DNA of 64,000 bases, from the NCBI GenBank assembly GCA_050015075.1, contig JBEKCB010000004.1, forward strand, positions 128,001 through 192,000. The letters run 5' to 3'. The position numbers and the translations under genes were made by a program. How positions within the stretch are numbered: the stretch's first letter is position 1; every line of letters begins with the position of its first letter. This DNA comes from Candidatus Brocadiia bacterium (GTDB lineage Bacteria > Planctomycetota > Brocadiia > CAIUPP01). The notes under the pieces are model-generated. The model worked only from the letters and a program-made list of their open reading frames with translations. It did not search any database and was not told the DNA's origin. Below, one piece after another: positions 12,458-63,471 of this stretch.

Positions 12458-12639
12458 TTGACCGCGAAAACGCGAAAAACGGAAACGTCAAACGGAATTG
12501 GAACCACAGAGCAATAGCGCGAGCTGGCGAGCGCTGCCTATCGCCACAGATGCGCACAGTTAAGAAACTTCGTATCTGTGCCTATCTGTGTTCATCTGTG
12601 GTTTAAACTTTTCTTTCGCGTTTTCGCGTTTTCGCGGTC
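12458..12639. repeat. Nested inverted-repeat element, copy 1 (carries a 33-bp insertion)
   Basis: Outer arms GACCGCGAAAACGCGAAA / TTTCGCGTTTTCGCGGTC. Inner arms AACCACAGAT-type / ATCTGTGGTT. Confidence 0.9.
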
Positions 12640-12677
12640 CAAGATTACGTTTCTTTTCCTGTGGTGAGGGAGCACGC

Positions 12678-50149: not shown

Positions 50150-50334
50150 GAGGTTTCCTTTTTCTCTCGAACGTGGTGCGACTGCGTACCATTAAGCAAT
50201 GCTAGTGTTTCGTTCAGCCTTAGTCAAGTCAAGCGGGAAAGCCGATTTCCAAGAGGTTCTTGCGCATCGCTGAGATGCCGGGTAAGATGCGGTGCGTGGA
50301 ACGCTGCGCGCAATCCGGCACGGGAGGCAACCCC

Positions 50335-51468
50335 ATGAGCAGCGAGCGGAAGAAAGTTCTGATCCTCTCCGTCAAGGCCGGCGCCGGCCACATACGGGCT
50401 GCGGCGGCCATGGAGCAGGTACTCAAAGAGACCCATCCGGAGGTCGAGACACACAACGTCGAGGCGCTTGAATACACCAATCCCGCATTCCAGGCCAGTT
50501 TCACGAGCGCGTACAACAAGCTCGCCTCCGACCTGCCTTCGGTCTGGGGAATCATCTACGAGCAGATGAACAAGAAGTCCTCCGCGAAATCGAAGAAGTT
50601 TGCGGCGCTCATTGACCGGTTGAACGCCACACCGATCGTCCGCATGGTCCGCCGGCACGCGCCCGACGCCATCATCTGCACGCACTACCTGCCCGGCGAA
50701 ATCCTCGGCCCGCTCCGGCGCAAAGGCAAGCTGGCCGCGCCGCTGTTCGTGACGCTGACCGACTACGACATCCACGCGATGTGGATTCAGGAAGGCGTGG
50801 ACCGGTACTTCGTCGCGACCGACGAAATGGCGCACGCGCTCCAGGAAACGGGAATCGGCAGCGCGAAAGTCAGCGTGACGGGAATCCCGATCATGCCGGT
50901 CTTCTCGCAGCCGCAACTCGCGCCGCGGGCGATGCGGCTGAAGCTCGGCCTGCGCGCGGAGCCGCCGACGGTCCTCCTCTCGGCCGGCGGGTTCGGCCTG
51001 AAGCGCGTGGATGAAACCGTCGCCATGCTCGCCGACGCCGTGGACGACGTGCAGCTCGTCGCGCTGGCGGGAAGGAACCAGAAACTCGAAAAGGCGCTGC
51101 GAGCCGTCGCGGCGTCGCGGCCGGGCAAGATCGTGCCGATGGGTTTCGCCGGGAACATGCACGAACTCATGGCCGCCAGCGATTTCGTCGTCTCGAAGAG
51201 CGGCGGCCTGACGTGCGCCGAATGCCTGGCGATGGGCGTCCCGATGGTGGTTTTTAATCCGATCCCCGGGCAGGAAGAGCGCAACGCGGATTACCTGCTC
51301 GAGAACGGCGTGGCGCTCCGCGCCAGCTCCGCCGCGCACCTGGTTTACAAAGTGCGCCGCCTGCTGACCGACTCGGCGCTCCTCGCCCGCATGAAGAGCG
51401 CCACGCAACAGATCGCCCGCCCGCGCGCGGCGTTCGAGATCGTCGAGACCGTGCTCAGTTGCATCTGA
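50335..51468 (+). CDS. MGDG synthase/UgtP-like glycosyltransferase (GT28)
   Basis: GAGHIRAA, CTHYLP, TDYDIHAMW, TGIPI, SKSGGLT..E, PIPGQEERNA. Confidence 0.9.
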   Translation: MSSERKKVLILSVKAGAGHIRAAAAMEQVLKETHPEVETHNVEALEYTNPAFQASFTSAYNKLASDLPSVWGIIYEQMNKKSSAKSKKFAALIDRLNATPIVRMVRRHAPDAIICTHYLPGEILGPLRRKGKLAAPLFVTLTDYDIHAMWIQEGVDRYFVATDEMAHALQETGIGSAKVSVTGIPIMPVFSQPQLAPRAMRLKLGLRAEPPTVLLSAGGFGLKRVDETVAMLADAVDDVQLVALAGRNQKLEKALRAVAASRPGKIVPMGFAGNMHELMAASDFVVSKSGGLTCAECLAMGVPMVVFNPIPGQEERNADYLLENGVALRASSAAHLVYKVRRLLTDSALLARMKSATQQIARPRAAFEIVETVLSCI

Positions 51469-51491: not shown

Positions 51492-52397
51492 CTACGCCCG
51501 CATCTCGATCACGCGCAGCGCCGCGGGCGCCACGTCCACCTCCACCGGCGTCCAGCCTGCCGCGTCGCCGTCCACCTGCACCGGCAGCGGCTGCTGCGAC
51601 GTGATGCGCAGCCGCACCGCCGTCCCGTGGTGGACATCGTTTCGCCGCAGGTGCCGCCGCCGCGCCGCGGCCTGGAGATACAGCAGCAGGTTCCGCAGGC
51701 CCGGCCGCTCGAACACCACCCAGTTCAGCCGGCCGTCGTCGTCGCGCGCCTCCGGCGCCAGCGGGAGCCCGAGCGCGTATCGCGGCAGGTTGAAAACGAA
51801 CGCGTGCGTCCCCGCGACGCGCACGCCGTCCGCTTCGAGTTCCAGGCGCCCGTACGAATATCCCGCAATCGCTTCGAGGATCCGGCCGACGTAGCTCCAA
51901 TACGTGACGCGCTTGAGCTTGCGGCCGTGCGCGCGCCAGAGCGCCAGCCGGCGGATGACCTCCGCATCGAAGCCGACGCCGATCATGGAGCTGAAGCGCC
52001 GGCCGTTCGCGTGGCCCAGGTCCACAGAGCGCACGCGCCCCTGCGCGATCGCGCTGACGAGGCGCTCCTCGTCGGACGAAAAGCCGAACGCCTGGGCAAA
52101 GACATTTTCCGTGCCGAGCGGCAGGACGGCTATCGGCACGCGAGGACGTTCATTGATGAGGTCGGCGACCGTGCCGTCGCCGCCGGCTGCGACGACGCAG
52201 TTCCAATTCGCGGCATGGTTCGGGTCGGCCAGTTCAGCGGTGCGCTCGCTGCGGTGCCAGAGTTCCTTCGGCTCGAAACCCGCGCGGCCGAGCGCCTCCG
52301 CCAGTGCGGCGACGCGCCGCCGGTTCGCCAGGGAGCCGCTGTAGGGATTTGCCACGATCAGAACGCCGCGCGCGTCGCCGGTGTCATTGCCCGCCAT
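51492..52397 (-). CDS. Diacylglycerol/lipid kinase family protein
   Basis: ANPYSG, GGDGTV, LPLGTEN.FA, GVGFDA, QVDGD. Confidence 0.88.
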   Translation of the reverse strand: MAGNDTGDARGVLIVANPYSGSLANRRRVAALAEALGRAGFEPKELWHRSERTAELADPNHAANWNCVVAAGGDGTVADLINERPRVPIAVLPLGTENVFAQAFGFSSDEERLVSAIAQGRVRSVDLGHANGRRFSSMIGVGFDAEVIRRLALWRAHGRKLKRVTYWSYVGRILEAIAGYSYGRLELEADGVRVAGTHAFVFNLPRYALGLPLAPEARDDDGRLNWVVFERPGLRNLLLYLQAAARRRHLRRNDVHHGTAVRLRITSQQPLPVQVDGDAAGWTPVEVDVAPAALRVIEMRA

Positions 52398-52516: not shown

Positions 52517-53284
52517 CTAACGCGTTCCCCTTCCCAGCCCTTGCTTGGTCAGCCAGGCGCAGCTCTCTCGAGCCGCCGTCACCATGTCCGTCGCGCAGCT
52601 ATCCAGCTCCACCACCAGCCATTGGAGCACCTTCGGATCGGCGGCGCGGACGCAGCCGGCCACGTCCATCTTGCCCGCGCCCACCGCCGTGTGCGGCTGA
52701 TCTTTGACCAGCGGCCCGTCCTTGATGTGGAGCAGCGGCATGCGGCTGCGATACTTCTTGATGACCTCCGGCACTTTCACCGCGCCGAAATTCGCCGCCC
52801 AGTAGGTGTCCAACTCGCCGAAAATATCCGGCGCCTGCTCCATCAGCAGGTCGTACTTGTACCGGCCGCCCTCGACGTCGAATTCCCACCAGTGGTTATG
52901 ATAGCCGAACCGCAGCCCGTGCGGTTTCAGCAGCTCGGCGGCCTTCTGAAGCTCCGCCGCCACGGTCTTCACGCCGTCCGGCCCCTTGAACTTGTCCGGC
53001 CCCCGGTTGGTGATGATCATTTTGTAGCCGAGCGCGTTGGCGGTCTCCACCGTCTCCTTGAGATTCTCCGCCGTCGGCAGGCCCACGTGCGCGGAGGAGG
53101 CGACCAGCCCGAGGTCGTCGAGCATCTTGCGCACCTCGGCCGCCTTCTTGCCGTACAGCCCGGCCATCTCGACACCGACGTAGCCGCTCGCGGCGACTTC
53201 TTTGAGCGTCTTGAGCAGGTCCTTCTCCGCCTCCTTGCGCAGCGTGTAAAGCTGAATACTGACCGGCGGCTTCTGCTTCGCCAT
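52517..53284 (-). CDS. Sugar phosphate isomerase/epimerase (TIM barrel)
   Basis: QLYTLR, GVEMAG, YHNHWWEF, ELDTYW, HIKD, VELD. Confidence 0.88.
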   Translation of the reverse strand: MAKQKPPVSIQLYTLRKEAEKDLLKTLKEVAASGYVGVEMAGLYGKKAAEVRKMLDDLGLVASSAHVGLPTAENLKETVETANALGYKMIITNRGPDKFKGPDGVKTVAAELQKAAELLKPHGLRFGYHNHWWEFDVEGGRYKYDLLMEQAPDIFGELDTYWAANFGAVKVPEVIKKYRSRMPLLHIKDGPLVKDQPHTAVGAGKMDVAGCVRAADPKVLQWLVVELDSCATDMVTAARESCAWLTKQGLGRGTR

Positions 53285-53301: not shown

Positions 53302-53691
53302 TTATGCCGGAACAGCCTTGTGAGCGTACACGATGACGCCCGTGCGGCCCTCCGAGCGAATCTTGCGGAATTCCAGGCGCACCTTCATTCCCATCTTCAT
53401 GTCCTCGGGCGCGACGTCCGCCACCTGGGCGGTCAGGCGCGTCGTGTCTTCCATCTCGATCACGGCGACGACGTAAGGCACTTCCTGCGCGAAGGCGGGC
53501 GGCGCGACGCGGATCACGCTGTACGTCAGCACCTTGCCCGACTGCGCCATCGGCTTCATCTCGAACTCGCGCCCGCGGCAGCCGTCGCAGACCTGGCGCG
53601 GCGGAAAGTGCATCTTCCCGCACCCCTTGCACCGGGCGACTTCGTTCAAAAGGCGCTGCCGCCGTTCGCGCCAGACGCGGACTGTGCTCAT
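53302..53691 (-). CDS. DUF35 Zn-ribbon/OB-fold protein (thiolase-HMGCS scaffold)
   Basis: CKGCG..FPPR.VCDGC and GKVLTYS, PYVVAVIE. Adjacent to the thiolase. Confidence 0.92.
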   Translation of the reverse strand: MSTVRVWRERRQRLLNEVARCKGCGKMHFPPRQVCDGCRGREFEMKPMAQSGKVLTYSVIRVAPPAFAQEVPYVVAVIEMEDTTRLTAQVADVAPEDMKMGMKVRLEFRKIRSEGRTGVIVYAHKAVPA

Positions 53692-53692
53692 T

Positions 53693-54850
53693 TCAGATCA
53701 GCTCCAATACGTGCACCACCGAACTTCCGCCGCTGCCGCCCATGTTCTGGGTCAGGCCGATCCGCGCGTTGCGGACCTGGCGCTCGCCGGCCTCGCCGCG
53801 CAGTTGCGTCACCACCTCGTTGATCTGCGCAACGCCGGTGGCGCCGACCGGATGGCCCTTCGACTTCAGGCCGCCGCTCGTGTTGACCGGCGATCGGCCG
53901 TCGCGCGCGGTCAGTCCGCTGCGCGCCGCGTCGCCGCCCTGCCCGCGCGGCACGAATCCCAGTTCCTCGATCGCGCACACCTCGGCGATCGTGAAGCAGT
54001 CGTGCACCTCCGCCAGGTGGATATCCGCGGGCTTGCGCTTCGCCATCTTGAGCGCGATCTGCCCGGACCGCTCGACCGCCGGCAACCTCGTCAGGTCGGC
54101 GCGGCGATAGAGCGCCAGGCTGTCGGTCGCGTGGCCGACCCCGGCGATCCGCACCGGCGCCTTCTTCGCCATCTTTTTCGCCAGTTCGAGCGGACACAGG
54201 ATCGCCGCCGCCGCGCCGTCGGTCACGGGCGAGCAATCGAGAATGTGCAGCGGGTCGGCGACCATCATCGAATCGAGCACGTCCTCCACGGTGATCCGGT
54301 TCCGGAACTGCGCCAGCGGGTTGAGCGCCCCGTTCGCGTGGTTCTTCACTGCGATCGCGGCGAGTTGCTCGCTGGTGGTGCCGTATCGCTCCATGTGCGC
54401 GCGCGCGATCATGGCGTAGAGCCCGGGGAACGTCACGCCGTGGAACGCCTCGTAGTCCTGGTCGGCGGCCGTCGCGAGCGCGGCCGTGCAAACGTCGCCG
54501 GCCACGTCGGTCATCTTCTCGACGCCCATCGCCAGCACGACGTCGCTCAGGCCGCTGGCGACCTCGATGAAGGCCGACCGCACCGCCAGTCCGCCCGAGG
54601 CGCAGGCCGATTCCACGCGCGTCGCCGGGATCGGCCCCAGGCCCAGGAAGTCCGAGGCCAGGCTCGCCAGGTGCTCTTGCTCGGCGAACAGGCCGCTCGA
54701 CATGCAGCCGACGTACATCGAGTCCACGTGGTCCACGCCCGCGTCGGCGATCGCCTTGAGCCCCGCCTCGACCATCAGATCGCGCAGCGATTTTTCCCAA
54801 AGCTCGCCGAACCGCGTCATCCCGATCCCGATAATCGCAACGTCCCGCAT
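53693..54850 (-). CDS. Acetoacetyl-CoA thiolase, archaeal/SCP2-like type
   Basis: [36 protein letters not shown]. Confidence 0.93.
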
Positions 54851-54887
54851 CGTCCGCCGCTCCACAATTCAATTTCGAAAACGCCGG

Positions 54888-55946
54888 TCAATCCTCTTCG
54901 CGCGCGATCTTGCTGCGGAACCGCGCGTAGCGCGTGTAATCGAGCTGCACGGTCGGCTTCGCGAGAATCTCCTCGACGGTTGGCCCGCGGCCGCGGACCT
55001 CCGCGATCAGGCCGGTGACCGTGAAGACGAACGCGTCGCTGCCCGCGCCCGATCCGTACGAGACCATGAAGATTTTCTGCCCCGGCTTCGCTACGTCGAG
55101 CACTGCGCAGAGCCCGAGCGGCGACGCGCCGCTGTACACGTTGCCGATGCGCGGCGACAGAAGCCCCGCGCGGCATTGCTCCTTCGAGAACCCGAGCAGT
55201 TGCCCCGCGCGGACCGGGAACTTGCCGTTCGGCTGATGGAAGATCGCGTGCGCGAAGTCGCCGACCTTCATGCCGGTCTGTTCGAGCAGCTTCCGCGCCG
55301 CCGTCATCGTGTGATGGAAATAGCCCGGCTCGCCCGTGAAGCGCCCGCCGTGCCGCGGGAACCGCTCCTCCTCGCGGCGCCAGAAGTCGGGCGTGTCCGT
55401 GGTGTAGGCGAGCGACGCGTCCATCGTCGCCACAACGCCTTCGCGCCCGAAGATGAAGGCCGCGGCGCCGGCGGCGGTGGCGAACTCGAGCGGGTCGCCC
55501 GGCGCGCCCTGAGCGGTGTCGGAGCCGATCGCCAGGGCGCACTCCACCGCGCCCGCCTCGACCAGGCGCGAGCACAGGTACATCGCCTCGGTGCCCGCCT
55601 TGCAGGCGAACTCCAAGTCCGCGGTGTGGATCCAGCGGGTCGTCCCGATCGCCTCGGAGACGACGGTGCTGCTGGGCTTCACGGCGTACGGATGCGACTC
55701 GGAGCCGATGTAGATCGCGCCGATCTTTGCCGGATCGGTTGCTCCGCGCCGGATCGCGCGGCGCGCCGCCTCGACCGCCAGCGTGATGCAGTCCTGGTCG
55801 CGCGCGGCGACGGACTTCTCCTCCATGCCGAGTCCCTTGCGATAGATCTCGGCCTCCCATCCCCACGCGCGCGCGACTTCAGAGGTCTTGATGCGATAGC
55901 GCGGGATGTACGCGCCATAGCCCACGATTCCGACCGGGTCCTTCAT
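54888..55946 (-). CDS. HMG-CoA synthase, archaeal type
   Basis: GSESHPYAVKP, DLEFACKAGT, DTPDFWRR, FHQPNGKFP, IGNVYSG, SYGSGAGSD. Confidence 0.93.
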   Translation of the reverse strand: MKDPVGIVGYGAYIPRYRIKTSEVARAWGWEAEIYRKGLGMEEKSVAARDQDCITLAVEAARRAIRRGATDPAKIGAIYIGSESHPYAVKPSSTVVSEAIGTTRWIHTADLEFACKAGTEAMYLCSRLVEAGAVECALAIGSDTAQGAPGDPLEFATAAGAAAFIFGREGVVATMDASLAYTTDTPDFWRREEERFPRHGGRFTGEPGYFHHTMTAARKLLEQTGMKVGDFAHAIFHQPNGKFPVRAGQLLGFSKEQCRAGLLSPRIGNVYSGASPLGLCAVLDVAKPGQKIFMVSYGSGAGSDAFVFTVTGLIAEVRGRGPTVEEILAKPTVQLDYTRYARFRSKIAREED

Positions 55947-55977
55947 CCGGAATTCTCCGAACAAACAACGACCAGCT

Positions 55978-56136
55978 TGACCGCGAAAGCGCGAAAACGC
56001 GAAAACGACAACGGAATACAACTTTGAACCACAGATGAACACAGATAAGCACAGATACGAAATTCTTTATCTGTGAACATCTGAGTCCATCTGTGGTTTA
56101 AATTCTTCTTTCGCGTTTTCGCGCTTTCGCGGTCAA
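55978..56136. repeat. Nested inverted-repeat element, copy 2
   Basis: Perfect 28-bp arms TTGACCGCGAAAGCGCGAAAACGCGAAA. Inner CACAGAT 10-mer arms. Confidence 0.93.
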
Positions 56137-56179
56137 ATAATTTGCGGTTGCCGTTTTTCGTTTCTTCACGGTTCCGCGG

Positions 56180-57040
56180 TTAACGGACCGCGGTCCCGGC
56201 CTCGCCGCCGCACAGTGCCGACTCGACCGTCCCGGCGACCAGGCCCGAAACGATCCGCGCGTCGAGGCCGCGAATCCTCTGCGCGATCTTGTACAACCGC
56301 TCGACCTTCCCGAGCATTCCACCGGTCACGTCCGGCCGGTCCGCGCGCTGCGGGACTGCGGCGCGAAGAGCGCGGCGGATTCCCGTGATGTTCTTCCGGT
56401 CCACGCATCGCACACAGTCCGCTGCGCGCTCGTGGACGGCCGGCGGCGCTGGAGAGAGGCGGCGTGGAGCAGCAAGATACACACCTTCCACGTCGCATGC
56501 AAGTATGATCCGCTCCGGATGCAGCCGGCCGGCCAGAAAATCGAAGAGTTCCTCCGTGCTCAGAATCGTGAAACCGCGGCGCTCATCGAGCACCGCATCG
56601 CCGTGGATCAGCGGAATCTGGCCGTCTTTCAACAGCGCGCGGATGACTCGCAGGTCCCAGCGGCGCACCTTGCCGTCGCGCGCGATCAGCTCCGCGCTGG
56701 GGCTGACGAGGGCCGGACGCAGCCCGCCGCGCGCCAGGGCGTCGAGCACGCGCGCATTCATCTCCAGCACGCCGCGCCGCGTCTCCGCGAACCCGCGCCA
56801 TCCGCCGCCGCCGGCCAGCCCTTCGCGCGTATGGTGCCGCTTCGCCGGGAAATGCGCGAACCCGCCGCCGCCGTGCGCCAGCAGAAGCCGCATCTGAGGA
56901 CGCCGCTCCAGCGCGCGCCCGATTTCGCCCGCCAACCGCTCGACCGCCGCCCGCCGGAACGCCCGCCGCCGCCGCTTGTCGCCCAGCAGCGATCCGCCGA
57001 GCTTCAGGAAGACAAGCGAAGCCGACCCGGATTCCTTCAC
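56180..57040 (-). CDS. Isopentenyl phosphate kinase
   Basis: LKLGGSLLGDK, HGGGGFAH (IPK signature His), HGDAV, DVTGGMLGKV. Located inside the mevalonate cluster. Confidence 0.88.
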   Translation of the reverse strand: MKESGSASLVFLKLGGSLLGDKRRRRAFRRAAVERLAGEIGRALERRPQMRLLLAHGGGGFAHFPAKRHHTREGLAGGGGWRGFAETRRGVLEMNARVLDALARGGLRPALVSPSAELIARDGKVRRWDLRVIRALLKDGQIPLIHGDAVLDERRGFTILSTEELFDFLAGRLHPERIILACDVEGVYLAAPRRLSPAPPAVHERAADCVRCVDRKNITGIRRALRAAVPQRADRPDVTGGMLGKVERLYKIAQRIRGLDARIVSGLVAGTVESALCGGEAGTAVR

Positions 57041-57079
57041 GAACCCGCCTCCATCACTACCGCGAAAACGACGGCATCT

Positions 57080-57258
57080 TTAACCGCGAAAACGCGAAAG
57101 CGCGAAAAACGGAAACGTCAAATGGATTTGGAACCACAGATGGACACAGATGAATGCAGTCAAGAAATTACGTATCTGTGTTCATCTGTGTCCATCTGTG
57201 GTTTAAATTCTTCCGTGTTTTAAATTCTTCTTTCGCGTTTTCGCGTTTTCGCGGTCAA
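57080..57258. repeat. Nested inverted-repeat element, copy 3
   Basis: Same arms and spacers as copies 1, 2, 4 and 5. Confidence 0.93.
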
Positions 57259-57300
57259 ACAATCCGTAGTTGCCGTTTTTCGTTTCTCAGCGGTCCGCGG

Positions 57301-58275
57301 TCAAGCCAGGTGCGCGCCCGGCCCGGCGTGGTCGGTCAGGACCTCACAGCCGGTCTCGCGCGCGATCTCATCGGCGACCCGCACGGCATCCTTTTTGAGC
57401 GTGAGGACGTGGACGTTCGGGCCTGCGTCAATGGTGAAGTACGCCTCGATGCCGCGCTTTCGAAGTCCGTACACGGCGCGGATCGCCTCGAGTGTGCCGG
57501 CGGTCCAATAGATCAGCGGCGGCGTCGAGGTCAGCATCACCGCGTGCATCGAAAGCGCATCCTCCTCGGCGGCTTCGCCCAGGAGCGCCAGGTCGCGGCG
57601 CAGGATGCCCTGTCGCACGCGGCCGGCGCGATCGGGAATCGCCGCCAGGCGACCCGTGAACGCCTCGCTCGTGTGGGCGATCCGGTGCCCTTCCGCGGAA
57701 GAGACCGTCTTCTCCTCGCGCGAGACCAGCGCGATGAGGTCGCACAGTTCCGGCCAGTGCGTTTCCGGCGCGATGGGCTCGGCGAAGGATTCTTCGTGAG
57801 TCGTCCCCGGATGCAGTTCCACGAATCCGCCCGGCACCGAGCGCGCGGCCGATCCGGAGCCGAGCCGCGCGATCCGCGAAAGCTCCGCCGCATCCGCCCG
57901 GATGCCGTACGCCGCCGAGGCCGCCACGGCCAGCGCGGCGAACCCGGAGGCGGATGAGGCGATCCCGCAGCCGGTCGGAAAACTGTTCTGCGAGGTGACC
58001 CGCGCGCTCTCTTTCCGGCCGGCGATCCGCCGGACGCGGTCCAGGAACAGGCCGATCCGGCGCGCGGATTTTTCGCCCGGCGGCGCGCCATCGAGCCGGA
58101 TCTCATCGCGCGAAGCGCTCTCGTCCAGGAGCGCGACCATCGTCGTCGTGACGCACGCGGAAAGCGTCATCGAGATGCTCGGGTTCAGCGGCAGGTTGTC
58201 CGCGCCGGGCCGGTTTCCCCAGTACTTGATGAACGCGATGTTGGCGCCGGCCAGCGCGGTGACGTTCGAAGCCAA
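57301..58275 (-). CDS. mvaD: MvaD-family decarboxylase (probably mevalonate-5-phosphate decarboxylase)
   Basis: ANIAFIKYWG, NPSISMTL, NSFPTGCGIASSASGFAAL, GSGSAARS, TIDAGPNVH. Confidence 0.9.
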   Translation of the reverse strand: MASNVTALAGANIAFIKYWGNRPGADNLPLNPSISMTLSACVTTTMVALLDESASRDEIRLDGAPPGEKSARRIGLFLDRVRRIAGRKESARVTSQNSFPTGCGIASSASGFAALAVAASAAYGIRADAAELSRIARLGSGSAARSVPGGFVELHPGTTHEESFAEPIAPETHWPELCDLIALVSREEKTVSSAEGHRIAHTSEAFTGRLAAIPDRAGRVRQGILRRDLALLGEAAEEDALSMHAVMLTSTPPLIYWTAGTLEAIRAVYGLRKRGIEAYFTIDAGPNVHVLTLKKDAVRVADEIARETGCEVLTDHAGPGAHLA

Positions 58276-58334
58276 GATTCACTCCGGAAAACGAGGAAGC
58301 ATGAATGATTAACGGCGAAGCACTTCTTCATTCA

Positions 58335-59294
58335 TCATTCAAACTTCGGACTATCCCCGAGGCTGGTGGTGATGGTGCTTTCGGCGCCGGCGAGCCGCAG
58401 CTCGGCGGCGATGCGTTCCTCGCCGGCCTCGTCATCCACCAGCGCGATCATCGCGCCGCCCCGGCCCGCGCCGGAGAGCTTCGCCCCGAGCGCGCCTTTC
58501 CGCAACGCGACTTCGACGAGCCGGTCCAGCTCCGGGCTGGAGACGCCGACGTGCCGCAGGATGCTGTGCGAGTGCGTCATGCAGACGCCGAGTTCGGCGG
58601 CCGACCCGCTGCGGATCACCTCGCGCGCGACGCTGGCCATCGAGCCGAGTTCCCAGAAATACGAATCGTACCGCGCCCGGTCCTTGTCGCGCGCCGCGCT
58701 CACGTCCTCGACGACCTGGAGCGTGGGCGATTCGATCCCCGTGTCGCCCACGATAAACCGGAAGCGGTTGGCGCCGACGGCGATTTCCTGCGGCGGCTTG
58801 CCGCGCACGAAATAGACCGGCTCGCCTTGCGCGACGACCGCGCAATCCACGCCGCTGGGGTTGCCGTGGAACTCGCGCTCCGCCTCGATCGCCAGCTCGC
58901 AGACCTGCTCCGTGGCGAGCTTGCGGCCGAGCGCACCGCAGACGCCGCGCACCAGGGCGACGGCGATCGCCGCCCCGCTGCCCATGCCGCGCCGCATCGG
59001 GATCGTCGAGTGCAGCCGGATGCGCATCCCCTGCTTCTGCTCGCCGAAGAGCCCTGCCACCGACTCGGCGAGCCGGTACAGCGGCGCCAGGCGCTCGGAC
59101 GCCTCTTCCGCGCTGTGGACGCGCTCCTTCAACTCGTCCGAGCTCATCTCGATCCCGACGCTCGGCGTCAGTTCGACCTCCGCGCGCGCGCGGACTCCCC
59201 GGAGCGGAATCGCGATGGCCGGATGGCCGTAGACCACCGCATGCTCGCCGATCAATAGGATTTTGCCCGGGGCTTCGCCCGACGCATTCGTCAT
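58335..59294 (-). CDS. mvk: Mevalonate kinase
   Basis: PGKILLIGEHAVVYGHPAIA, PMRRGMGSGAA, HGNPSGVD, GAKLSGAGRGG. Confidence 0.94.
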   Translation of the reverse strand: MTNASGEAPGKILLIGEHAVVYGHPAIAIPLRGVRARAEVELTPSVGIEMSSDELKERVHSAEEASERLAPLYRLAESVAGLFGEQKQGMRIRLHSTIPMRRGMGSGAAIAVALVRGVCGALGRKLATEQVCELAIEAEREFHGNPSGVDCAVVAQGEPVYFVRGKPPQEIAVGANRFRFIVGDTGIESPTLQVVEDVSAARDKDRARYDSYFWELGSMASVAREVIRSGSAAELGVCMTHSHSILRHVGVSSPELDRLVEVALRKGALGAKLSGAGRGGAMIALVDDEAGEERIAAELRLAGAESTITTSLGDSPKFE

Positions 59295-59347
59295 CGAACT
59301 CTCCGTACCGCGAAGACGCGGGACCACGAAACAAAGTCAACGGCAAC

Positions 59348-59534
59348 TTGACCGCGAAAACGCGAAAGCGCGAAAACGGCAACGGACAACGGCGTTTGAA
59401 CCACAGATGTACACAGATACGCACAGATACGAATTCTTTGACTGCGTGCATCTGTGTTCATCTGTGTCCATCTGTGGTTTAAATTCTTCCGTGTTTTAAA
59501 TTCTTCTTTCGCGTTTTCGCGTTTTCGCGGTCAA
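59348..59534. repeat. Nested inverted-repeat element, copy 4 (third degenerate arm pair extends to about 59317-59575)
   Basis: Right half near-identical to copy 3. Inner loop reversed. Confidence 0.93.
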
Positions 59535-59590
59535 ACAATCCGTAGTTGCCGTTTTGGTTTTTTCGCGGTCCGCGGCCCGCGATCTACTCG

Positions 59591-59642
59591 ATTCTATATG
59601 TCCATCAAGACAATTGCAACGCATGCGGCCGGACGCTATGAT
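59591..59642. promoter_or_regulatory. Divergent promoters sharing a palindromic -35 (TTGCAA)
   Basis: TTGCAA at 59614-59619. Plus strand N17-TATGAT, minus strand N17-TAGAAT. Confidence 0.6.
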
Positions 59643-63247: not shown

Positions 63248-63436
63248 ACCGCGAAAACGCGAAAACGCAAAAAAACGCTAACGTTAAAACGAGTTTGGAA
63301 CCACAGATGGACACAGATGAACACAGATGCACGCAGTTAAAAAATTCGTATCTGTGTTCATCTGTGTCCATCTGTGGTTTAGATTCTTCCGTGGTTTAGA
63401 TTTTTCTTTTTTCGCGTTTTCGCGCTTTCGCGGTCA
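63248..63436. repeat. Nested inverted-repeat element, copy 5
   Basis: Same architecture as the other four copies. Confidence 0.92.
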
Positions 63437-63471
63437 GACGGACTTTCCGTTGGGTTGGAAGGAGATAAGCG

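Follow-up and report, generated by a model that had tools for sequence, protein, structure and literature searches.

The haloarchaea/Chloroflexi-type mevalonate pathway, in which mevalonate kinase (MVK), phosphomevalonate decarboxylase (PMD) and isopentenyl phosphate kinase (IPK) act without a phosphomevalonate kinase (PMK), has been described for Roseiflexus castenholzii (Dellas 2013) and Haloferax volcanii (VanNice 2014). According to the accessible text of Hoshino & Gaucher 2018, the Chloroflexi pathway pairs an archaeal-like thiolase and HMG-CoA synthase (HMGS; HMG-CoA is 3-hydroxy-3-methylglutaryl-CoA) with the decarboxylase (MPD) and IPK; thiolase, HMGS, HMGR-II, IDI-II and IPK cluster near archaea, the Chloroflexi do not cluster these genes in their genomes, and Planctomycetes are unmentioned in that text. 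The archaeal route with AcnX, a UbiD-type decarboxylase and IPK has been reported in a Chloroflexota bacterium (Kanno 2024). The archaeal channelling complex with structures 6esq/6et9 goes back to Voegeli 2018, as cited in the accessible part of PMC12960953. Here we describe a cluster of six mevalonate pathway genes on the minus strand, from position 59294 to 53302 of a 64,000-nt stretch of DNA of a Planctomycetota bacterium. This stretch, called the window below, comprises positions 128001-192000 of contig C4 in the assembly G000 (4.64 Mb, 66 contigs, 93.6% complete, 3.8% contamination). The cluster probably covers six of the eight steps of a complete PMK-less mevalonate pathway of the haloarchaea/Chloroflexi type, which would be the organism's only isoprenoid route and old in its lineage.

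The six co-directional genes follow each other in the order MVK, decarboxylase, IPK, HMG-CoA synthase (HMGCS), thiolase and DUF35. MVK (58335-59294, 319 aa; TIGR00549 235 bits, cut-off 163) starts with an ATG at 59294, and a GGAG motif lies 6 nt 5' of the start. It is followed by an MvaD-family decarboxylase, a putative PMD (57301-58275, 324 aa; TIGR01240 273 bits, cut-off 171), and by IPK (56180-57040, 286 aa; NF040647 143 bits, cut-off 120), which has a GTG start codon with GGAGG upstream. The archaeal-type HMGCS (54888-55946, 352 aa, ATG at 55946) scored 494 bits with TIGR00748 (cut-off 353), and 518 bits with NF003274 in the family profile search. It is separated by 22 nt from the archaeal-type acetoacetyl-CoA thiolase (53693-54865, 390 aa; NF004720 546 bits, cut-off 420). 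An overlapping open reading frame at 53688-54872 is not the thiolase frame and had no family match. The gap between the thiolase stop and the gene for the DUF35 scaffold protein (53302-53691, 129 aa; PF01796 and PF12172) is 1 nt. The sequence-only reading of the window had listed the same six genes, with the DUF35 stop at 53302 and the MVK start exactly placed, and it was also right that neither a PMK nor an HMG-CoA reductase (HMGR) is encoded within the window.

The reductase was found elsewhere in the genome. Contig C15 encodes a class-II HMGR (366 bits by Pfam, 458 bits by TIGR00532), and directly adjoining it a type-2 isopentenyl diphosphate (IPP) isomerase (IDI-2, 345 bits). In the proposed pathway thiolase, HMGCS and DUF35 would form an archaeal-style complex that makes HMG-CoA from three acetyl-CoA, and the HMGR on C15 would convert HMG-CoA to mevalonate. 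MVK would phosphorylate mevalonate to mevalonate 5-phosphate, which the MvaD-family enzyme would decarboxylate to isopentenyl phosphate. IPK would then form IPP, and the isomerase beside the reductase would supply dimethylallyl diphosphate (DMAPP). Directly upstream of IDI-2 and HMGR on C15 (L153, 5993-9418) lies a gene for an archaeal-type IMP cyclohydrolase PurO (TIGR01922, 215 bits), a second archaeal-flavoured gene beside genes of the pathway.

Genes that would indicate another isoprenoid route were sought in the whole genome. For PMK, the only match of the GHMP-type models TIGR01220 and NF040957 was the MVK gene; the animal-type model PF04275 had no match in G000, and as its control was likewise silent, this result is uninformative. 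Dxr, IspG and IspH of the methylerythritol phosphate (MEP) pathway had no match in G000, while each was matched in 9 of 14 known reference genomes that served as controls; Dxs, IspD, IspE and IspF were not searched. The best match for AcnX (PF04412) reached 20.7 bits, below the cut-off. PcrB/GGGPS was not found in G000, and a link of the cluster to archaeal ether lipids, for the genes of which the sequence-only reading had suggested a search, was rejected.

For IPK, the seven best solved relatives are IPK-family entries, with 3ll9 at the top (124.7 bits); six of these carry this title, and 3lkk is listed as 'Gamma-glutamyl kinase related protein'. FomA comes eighth, at the end of the list. For the decarboxylase, the best solved relative is 6n0x/6n0y with 275 bits, while classical diphosphomevalonate decarboxylases (DMD) scored at most 215 bits. 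A figure legend in the accessible part of PMC9254496 identifies 6n0x as the PMD of Anaerolinea thermophila with mevalonate 5-phosphate bound. In the alignment the window enzyme has Asn21 and His197, the same pair as 6n0x; in 5v2l and 2hk2, which are classical enzymes, the corresponding residues are Lys and Met. The entry 6n0z, which has the same molecule name as 6n0x, deviates from it at exactly these two sites of the alignment, with Lys in place of Asn (YWG-N-R) and Met in place of His; it is presumably the specificity variant reported by Thomas 2019.

The same residues have been used to tell the two kinds of decarboxylase apart. Table 4 of Dellas 2013 gives Lys21 as conserved in enzymes acting on the diphosphate and replaced in those acting on the monophosphate, and the accessible part of Zhu 2024 words the same criterion as a PMD without the conserved DMD Lys and with His. 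We applied this to 85 aligned homologue rows, two of which are from G000 itself. The DMD-type Lys was absent in 51 of 53 Chloroflexota rows and in all six rows from other Planctomycetota genomes. It was present in 12 of the 13 rows with a bacterial title in the clade typical for the candidate phyla radiation (CPR); by title these 12 comprise six CPR phyla/Patescibacteria, four Pseudomonadota, one Pacearchaeota and one 'bacterium'. The 'uncultured archaeon' row of this clade (L029) also has Lys, and a Roizmanbacteria row outside the clade (L075) has Arg at this position.

Several points weigh against the proposed pathway. The His of the diagnostic pair is nearly universal in the aligned set and also occurs in most Lys-bearing CPR homologues, and therefore does not discriminate. 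The haloarchaeal MvaD equivalog NF040704 reached only 185 bits (cut-off 475), while TIGR01240, which passes its cut-off, is a 'diphosphomevalonate decarboxylase' model; by its sequence the enzyme is of the Chloroflexi-like and not of the haloarchaeal kind. According to the accessible part of Zhu 2024, Chloroflexota enzymes are DMD that also show PMD activity, so the window enzyme may have dual specificity. The name PMD is a putative one, derived from similarity and two residues. The PMK models are imperfect, as TIGR01220 reached its cut-off in none of the 14 control genomes and the PF04275 control was silent. The genome is 93.6% complete, and the MEP search covers Dxr, IspG and IspH. Finally, IPK is flanked by gaps of 233 and 260 bp, each occupied by a strong hairpin; the six genes may be co-transcribed, but because of these hairpins a single transcript is not assured.

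In a rival explanation, the decarboxylase would be a classical or dual-specificity DMD that is fed by an unrecognised PMK, with IPK merely salvaging isopentenyl phosphate. The result for TIGR01240 and NF040704, the activities of the Chloroflexota enzymes and the limited sensitivity of the PMK models speak for this explanation. We nevertheless regard it as improbable, considering that the GHMP-type PMK models yielded no candidate other than MVK, that the enzyme shares with the solved PMD an Asn at the site of the DMD Lys, and that each of the four family genomes has IPK and decarboxylase as direct neighbours. The hallmarks of the classical mevalonate pathway, a PMK and a decarboxylase with Lys, appear to be lacking.

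The PMK-less pathway was found throughout the family of the window organism. The same six genes in the same order are present in the same-genus genome G421 (91-96% amino acid identity) and in G423 and L009 (55-77%). L009, titled a Planctomycetota metagenome-assembled genome, is the closest named record, with 57-73% identity. All four family genomes contain decarboxylase and IPK; in G422 HMGCS is located on a different contig than MVK, decarboxylase and IPK. AcnX was not found in G421-G423 at E <= 1e-10. Dxr is absent in all four family genomes and in G424, the only genome of the sister family f105 in the same order, and present in G425 of the same class. None of the order's five genomes (88-94% complete) has IspH, in contrast to three of three genomes from other families of the class. 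These other families have Dxr and IspH and lack IPK. Because the MEP pathway is lost across the whole order, the mevalonate pathway appears to be the organism's only route to isoprenoid precursors and would be essential. In G423 and in the genome of L009, HMGCS reads in two frames (residues 33-233 and 238-384), and a second, fragmented HMGCS copy is present on a short contig (L162, 393-1455; L149/L151; L152). The split or fragmented copies represent either an assembly error or a decaying duplicate.

An assembly of 66 contigs with 93.6% completeness and 3.8% contamination could also mean that the MEP genes are present but unassembled, or that contig C4 was mis-binned and the mevalonate genes are accessory or foreign. 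We consider this very unlikely. Three unlinked MEP genes are missing from G000, and Dxr and IspH, which relatives of the class possess, are missing from each of the order's five genomes. The cluster carries a palindromic repeat that also occurs on at least 15 other contigs, among them C15 with the HMGR gene, and its GC content at third codon positions (GC3) equals that of flanking genes: the six genes have a GC of 0.66-0.71 and a GC3 of 0.82-0.92, compared to 0.69 and 0.92 for the flanking serA and a genome GC of 0.647.

This repeat is about 200-260 bp long and AT-richer (GC 0.46-0.48), and has about 29 matches in the genome. Three copies lie at the cluster: one upstream of MVK (59340-59575, 84.5% identical to the second copy), where it would be part of the 5' leader, one between decarboxylase and IPK (57041-57300), and one between IPK and HMGCS (55947-56179). 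Further copies in the window are located at 63248-63439 and 12463-12650. The RNA of the copy at 57041-57300 is predicted to fold into a hairpin of -117.9 kcal/mol (z-score -10.9), and none of 200 shuffled sequences was as stable. The repeat resembles a miniature inverted-repeat transposable element (MITE) or a repetitive extragenic palindromic (REP)-like element. Rfam has no family for it; microRNA-like hairpin matches on the repeats were all below threshold and were rejected as chance. G421 has the repeat at the same three positions of the cluster. G422, G423 and L009 lack it, and the corresponding gaps of L009 measure 21 and 46 nt. The repeat therefore entered after divergence within the family. 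Family-wide conservation, host-like GC3 and the repeat copies within the cluster together indicate that the cluster is long resident in the lineage and was later invaded by a repeat of its host. The sequence-only reading had proposed a Planctomycete host, host-like GC, host repeats between the genes and long residence, and all four statements hold.

Public sequencing runs provided independent assemblies of the locus. The stretch was found in 24 run rows, and in 12 of these at least half of its sampled words are present. These runs are labelled peat metagenomes, save one soil row with a share of 0.20, and no RNA run is among them; the host Planctomycetota bacterium is peat-dwelling. In four further peat runs, which are not marked as possible sources of the assembly, contigs with 95-100% identity covered 30, 30, 30 and 29 of 30 bins. 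They bridge the junctions DUF35-thiolase, thiolase-HMGCS and decarboxylase-MVK, and span IPK from repeat to repeat. Because none of these contigs crosses a repeat, it is the assembly and the relatives lacking the repeat that link IPK to its neighbours. Word depth was increased several-fold at the three repeats, and the bin of the copy at 59340-59575 was above the neighbouring bins in all four runs.

The upper module is of the archaeal type. HMGCS, thiolase and DUF35 each have as best solved match their own subunit of one archaeal complex, 6esq/6et9, the source of which is presumably Methanothermococcus thermolithotrophicus (HMGCS 416-419 bits, with 418.6 for 6esq_I; thiolase 377 bits for 6esq_A; DUF35 97.8 bits for 6esq_E). 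The E-C-H-N tetrad of HMGCS is kept and aligns with chain positions 82, 114, 238 and 270 of 6esq_I. In the thiolase, the CxS, GHx and HDxF motifs of 6esq_A have their aligned counterparts in CAS, GHP and HDCF, and the four-Cys zinc ribbon of DUF35 (CxxC...CxxC) aligns with 6esq_E; its domains PF12172 and PF01796 stand for zinc ribbon and OB fold. The accessible part of PMC12960953 names CxS and GHx alongside HDxF, gives the tetrad positions 82, 114, 238 and 270 through its mut4 variant, and uses the HMGS tetrad and the thiolase HDxF to separate the true mevalonate complex from repurposed bacterial acyltransferases. The three proteins are predicted to form such a complex, which would channel acetoacetyl-CoA. 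That the trio is instead a repurposed Phl- or Muc-type acyltransferase for a secondary metabolite can practically be dismissed: such bacterial complexes exist (PMC12960953, accessible part) and the solved relatives include homologues of PhlA, PhlC and PhlB (5m3k, with 204 bits to HMGCS and 49.6 to DUF35), but the scores to the archaeal complex are about double (416, 377 and 97.8 bits), the tetrad and HDxF that are lost in Phl/Muc enzymes according to the same source are all present, HMGR, MVK and the remaining pathway are encoded, and the MEP genes searched (Dxr, IspG, IspH) were not found.

In a sample of 401 Planctomycetota genomes, IPK was above the cut-off in 15 (including G000), which were then compared with seven hand-picked IPK-negative genomes; as IPK itself defined the groups and there are few controls, the comparison shows co-occurrence and is no statistical test. 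Dxr was present in none of the 15 IPK-positive genomes and in all seven IPK-negative ones. Among the IPK-positive genomes, six have an MvaD-family decarboxylase above the cut-off and the other nine have AcnX above the cut-off; archaeal-type HMGCS was above the cut-off in 6 of 15.

The nine genomes with AcnX belong to four other families (G047, G073, G121, G140, G159, G057, G082, G107, G321; L109-L117, L089-L097, L119-L122). They have IPK together with AcnX (388-513 bits) and lack both Dxr and an MvaD-family decarboxylase, a pattern that resembles the archaeal mevalonate route. A DUF126 small subunit follows the AcnX large subunit in G159, and HMGCS, thiolase and DUF35 are also present in four of five f47 genomes. 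A Chloroflexia locus (L040) combines IPK with an MvaD-family decarboxylase that has the DMD-type Lys and with an AcnX that shares 54% identity with the enzyme of the Planctomycetota family f47; parts of two routes are thus found side by side. In family f14 (L098, L100, L102-L105), a third Planctomycetota lineage, MVK, decarboxylase and IPK are clustered, and no archaeal-type HMGCS is above the cut-off.

The sister family f105 is represented by a single genome, G424 (88% complete). It has IPK and an archaeal-type HMGCS (505 bits), and the window decarboxylase as query gave no match. A UbiD-family decarboxylase, a fused AcnX and IPK are encoded co-directionally on one contig of G424. This gene content suggests that the sister family may use the archaeal UbiD-AcnX-IPK route and that the route was switched within one order.

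Trees were calculated for the enzymes in question. In the IPK tree (32 rows, careful method; L151 was dropped as identical to L162) the window's family forms one clade (96/88) that is joined to f105 (93/92), and both together join the AcnX-bearing families f69 and f52 (99/96). IPK of f14 groups with Acidobacteriota (100/100), and f47, f13 and f100 form a third group. The decarboxylase tree (85 rows, quick method) was rooted on a single long branch (L012). The window sequence and L009 form a clade (100) that is sister, with a support of 88 that is not firm, to a large clade of Chloroflexota and CPR. The f14 enzyme nests with Acidobacteriota (100) and that of G010 lies elsewhere on a long branch; thus the Planctomycetota decarboxylases are not one group. 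Since decarboxylase and IPK of f14 nest with Acidobacteriota (Thermoanaerobaculia) at full support, a separate transfer of the f14 lower module is suggested by the trees. Rows titled Gammaproteobacteria, Pseudomonadales or Pacearchaeota (L026, L030, L058, L059, L046) lie inside the CPR decarboxylase clade; their genomes have 0.6-1.6 Mb, and their taxon labels are probably wrong.

The HMGCS tree (24 rows, quick method) lacks a true archaeal reference and contains a long branch that is not orthologous (L125). It splits Chloroflexota and CPR from the Planctomycetota sequences (starred branch, 97), and no donor can be named because of the missing reference and the long branch. In an AcnX tree of 12 rows the relations of f105, f69 and f52 were not resolved, which speaks neither for nor against co-inheritance with IPK. 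By parsimony on the IPK tree, the AcnX route would be the ancestral one, which the decarboxylase would have replaced in the window's family; with unrooted trees and one genome of the sister family, this direction is to be read with caution.

Taken together, these data allow a tentative reading of the history, to which we give slightly less than an even chance. The ancestor of the order would have lacked the MEP pathway and used the UbiD/AcnX/IPK route. The window's family would then have exchanged two oxygen-sensitive, ATP-free steps for one ATP-dependent PMD from elsewhere, kept IPK and the upper module, and fused all into one cluster. About 4% of the sampled Planctomycetota (15 of 401) would run two kinds of IPK-dependent pathway, acquired at least three times. 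If true, this would be a bacterial replay of the step by which the haloarchaeal route has been proposed to arise from the archaeal route.

The surroundings of the cluster were also inspected. A gene for a xylose-isomerase-like TIM-barrel protein (52517-53284, minus strand; PF01261, 53.6 bits) starts 17 nt past DUF35 with a GGGAGG site, and may be a seventh co-transcribed gene; in L009 a homologue is located about 2 kb downstream of DUF35. This match and a serA match in G421 are the only flanking synteny with the relatives. Upstream of the cluster, a promoter-like site on the minus strand (59591-59619; TTGCAA, 17 nt spacer, TAGAAT) is a consensus match only: the scan gave two sites with 0.8 expected, which is no evidence of function. 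A terminator scan gave seven sites with 6.1 expected and is thus uninformative. Just downstream of the cluster, a YegS-type lipid kinase is encoded at 51492-52397 on the minus strand and a diglucosyl-diacylglycerol-synthase-like glycosyltransferase at 50260-51468 on the plus strand; these are lipid genes next to those for isoprenoids.

The sequence-only reading had called the locus a hybrid of an archaeal upper module and an IPK-dependent lower module. The two modules do lie in one cluster, but the term hybrid is too strong, since the Chloroflexi pathway already pairs them. The combination is not new, because the haloarchaea/Chloroflexi-type route is already known; new are the phylum Planctomycetota and the single-cluster layout. 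In the reachable literature we found no paper that describes the operon for Planctomycetota, and the full texts covered, which leave most subscription papers outside, contain nothing that ties IPK or a PMK-less route to this phylum. A 2026 review, in its accessible part, names only Chloroflexota for archaeal-type pathways in bacteria. Planctomycetota would be a second phylum in which the whole MEP pathway is replaced. The most interesting aspect lies outside the window, in the other IPK-dependent route of the sister family. The two sister families differ only in the conversion of mevalonate 5-phosphate to isopentenyl phosphate, and are a close natural pair for asking why one route replaces another, e.g., oxygen exposure versus ATP cost. 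Together with reductase and isomerase, the compact six-gene cluster could serve as a movable unit for pathway engineering.

Compared to the known systems, the trio of thiolase, HMGCS and DUF35 resembles the 6esq/6et9 complex by its three adjacent genes and by the conserved tetrad, motifs and zinc ribbon. It differs in that it occurs in a bacterium, is joined with the lower-pathway genes in a single cluster, and is known here from its genes. Clusters of the upper trio with MVK and decarboxylase also occur in CPR/Patescibacteria (HMGCS-thiolase-DUF35-(gene)-MVK-decarboxylase in L022, L024, L049, L052 and L059). However, these have the opposite gene order and 22-49% protein identity to the window, and they fit the classical route, because their decarboxylase keeps the DMD Lys and the cluster has no IPK. 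The archaeal AcnX/UbiD route shares the upper module, MVK and IPK with the window, and the IPK of f105 is sister to that of the window; in the window organism, in which no AcnX was found, one ATP-dependent decarboxylase takes the place of the dehydratase and decarboxylase pair. The closest likeness is to the Chloroflexi type, with MVK, an MvaD-family decarboxylase without the DMD Lys, IPK, class-II HMGR, IDI-2, and an archaeal-like thiolase and HMGS, while neither a PMK nor an MEP pathway was found. Unlike the Chloroflexi, the window host belongs to the Planctomycetota, its decarboxylase clade lies outside and not inside the clade of Chloroflexota and CPR, and the Chloroflexi loci compared here contain only triplets of MVK, MPD and IPK, whereas in the window all six genes form one cluster.

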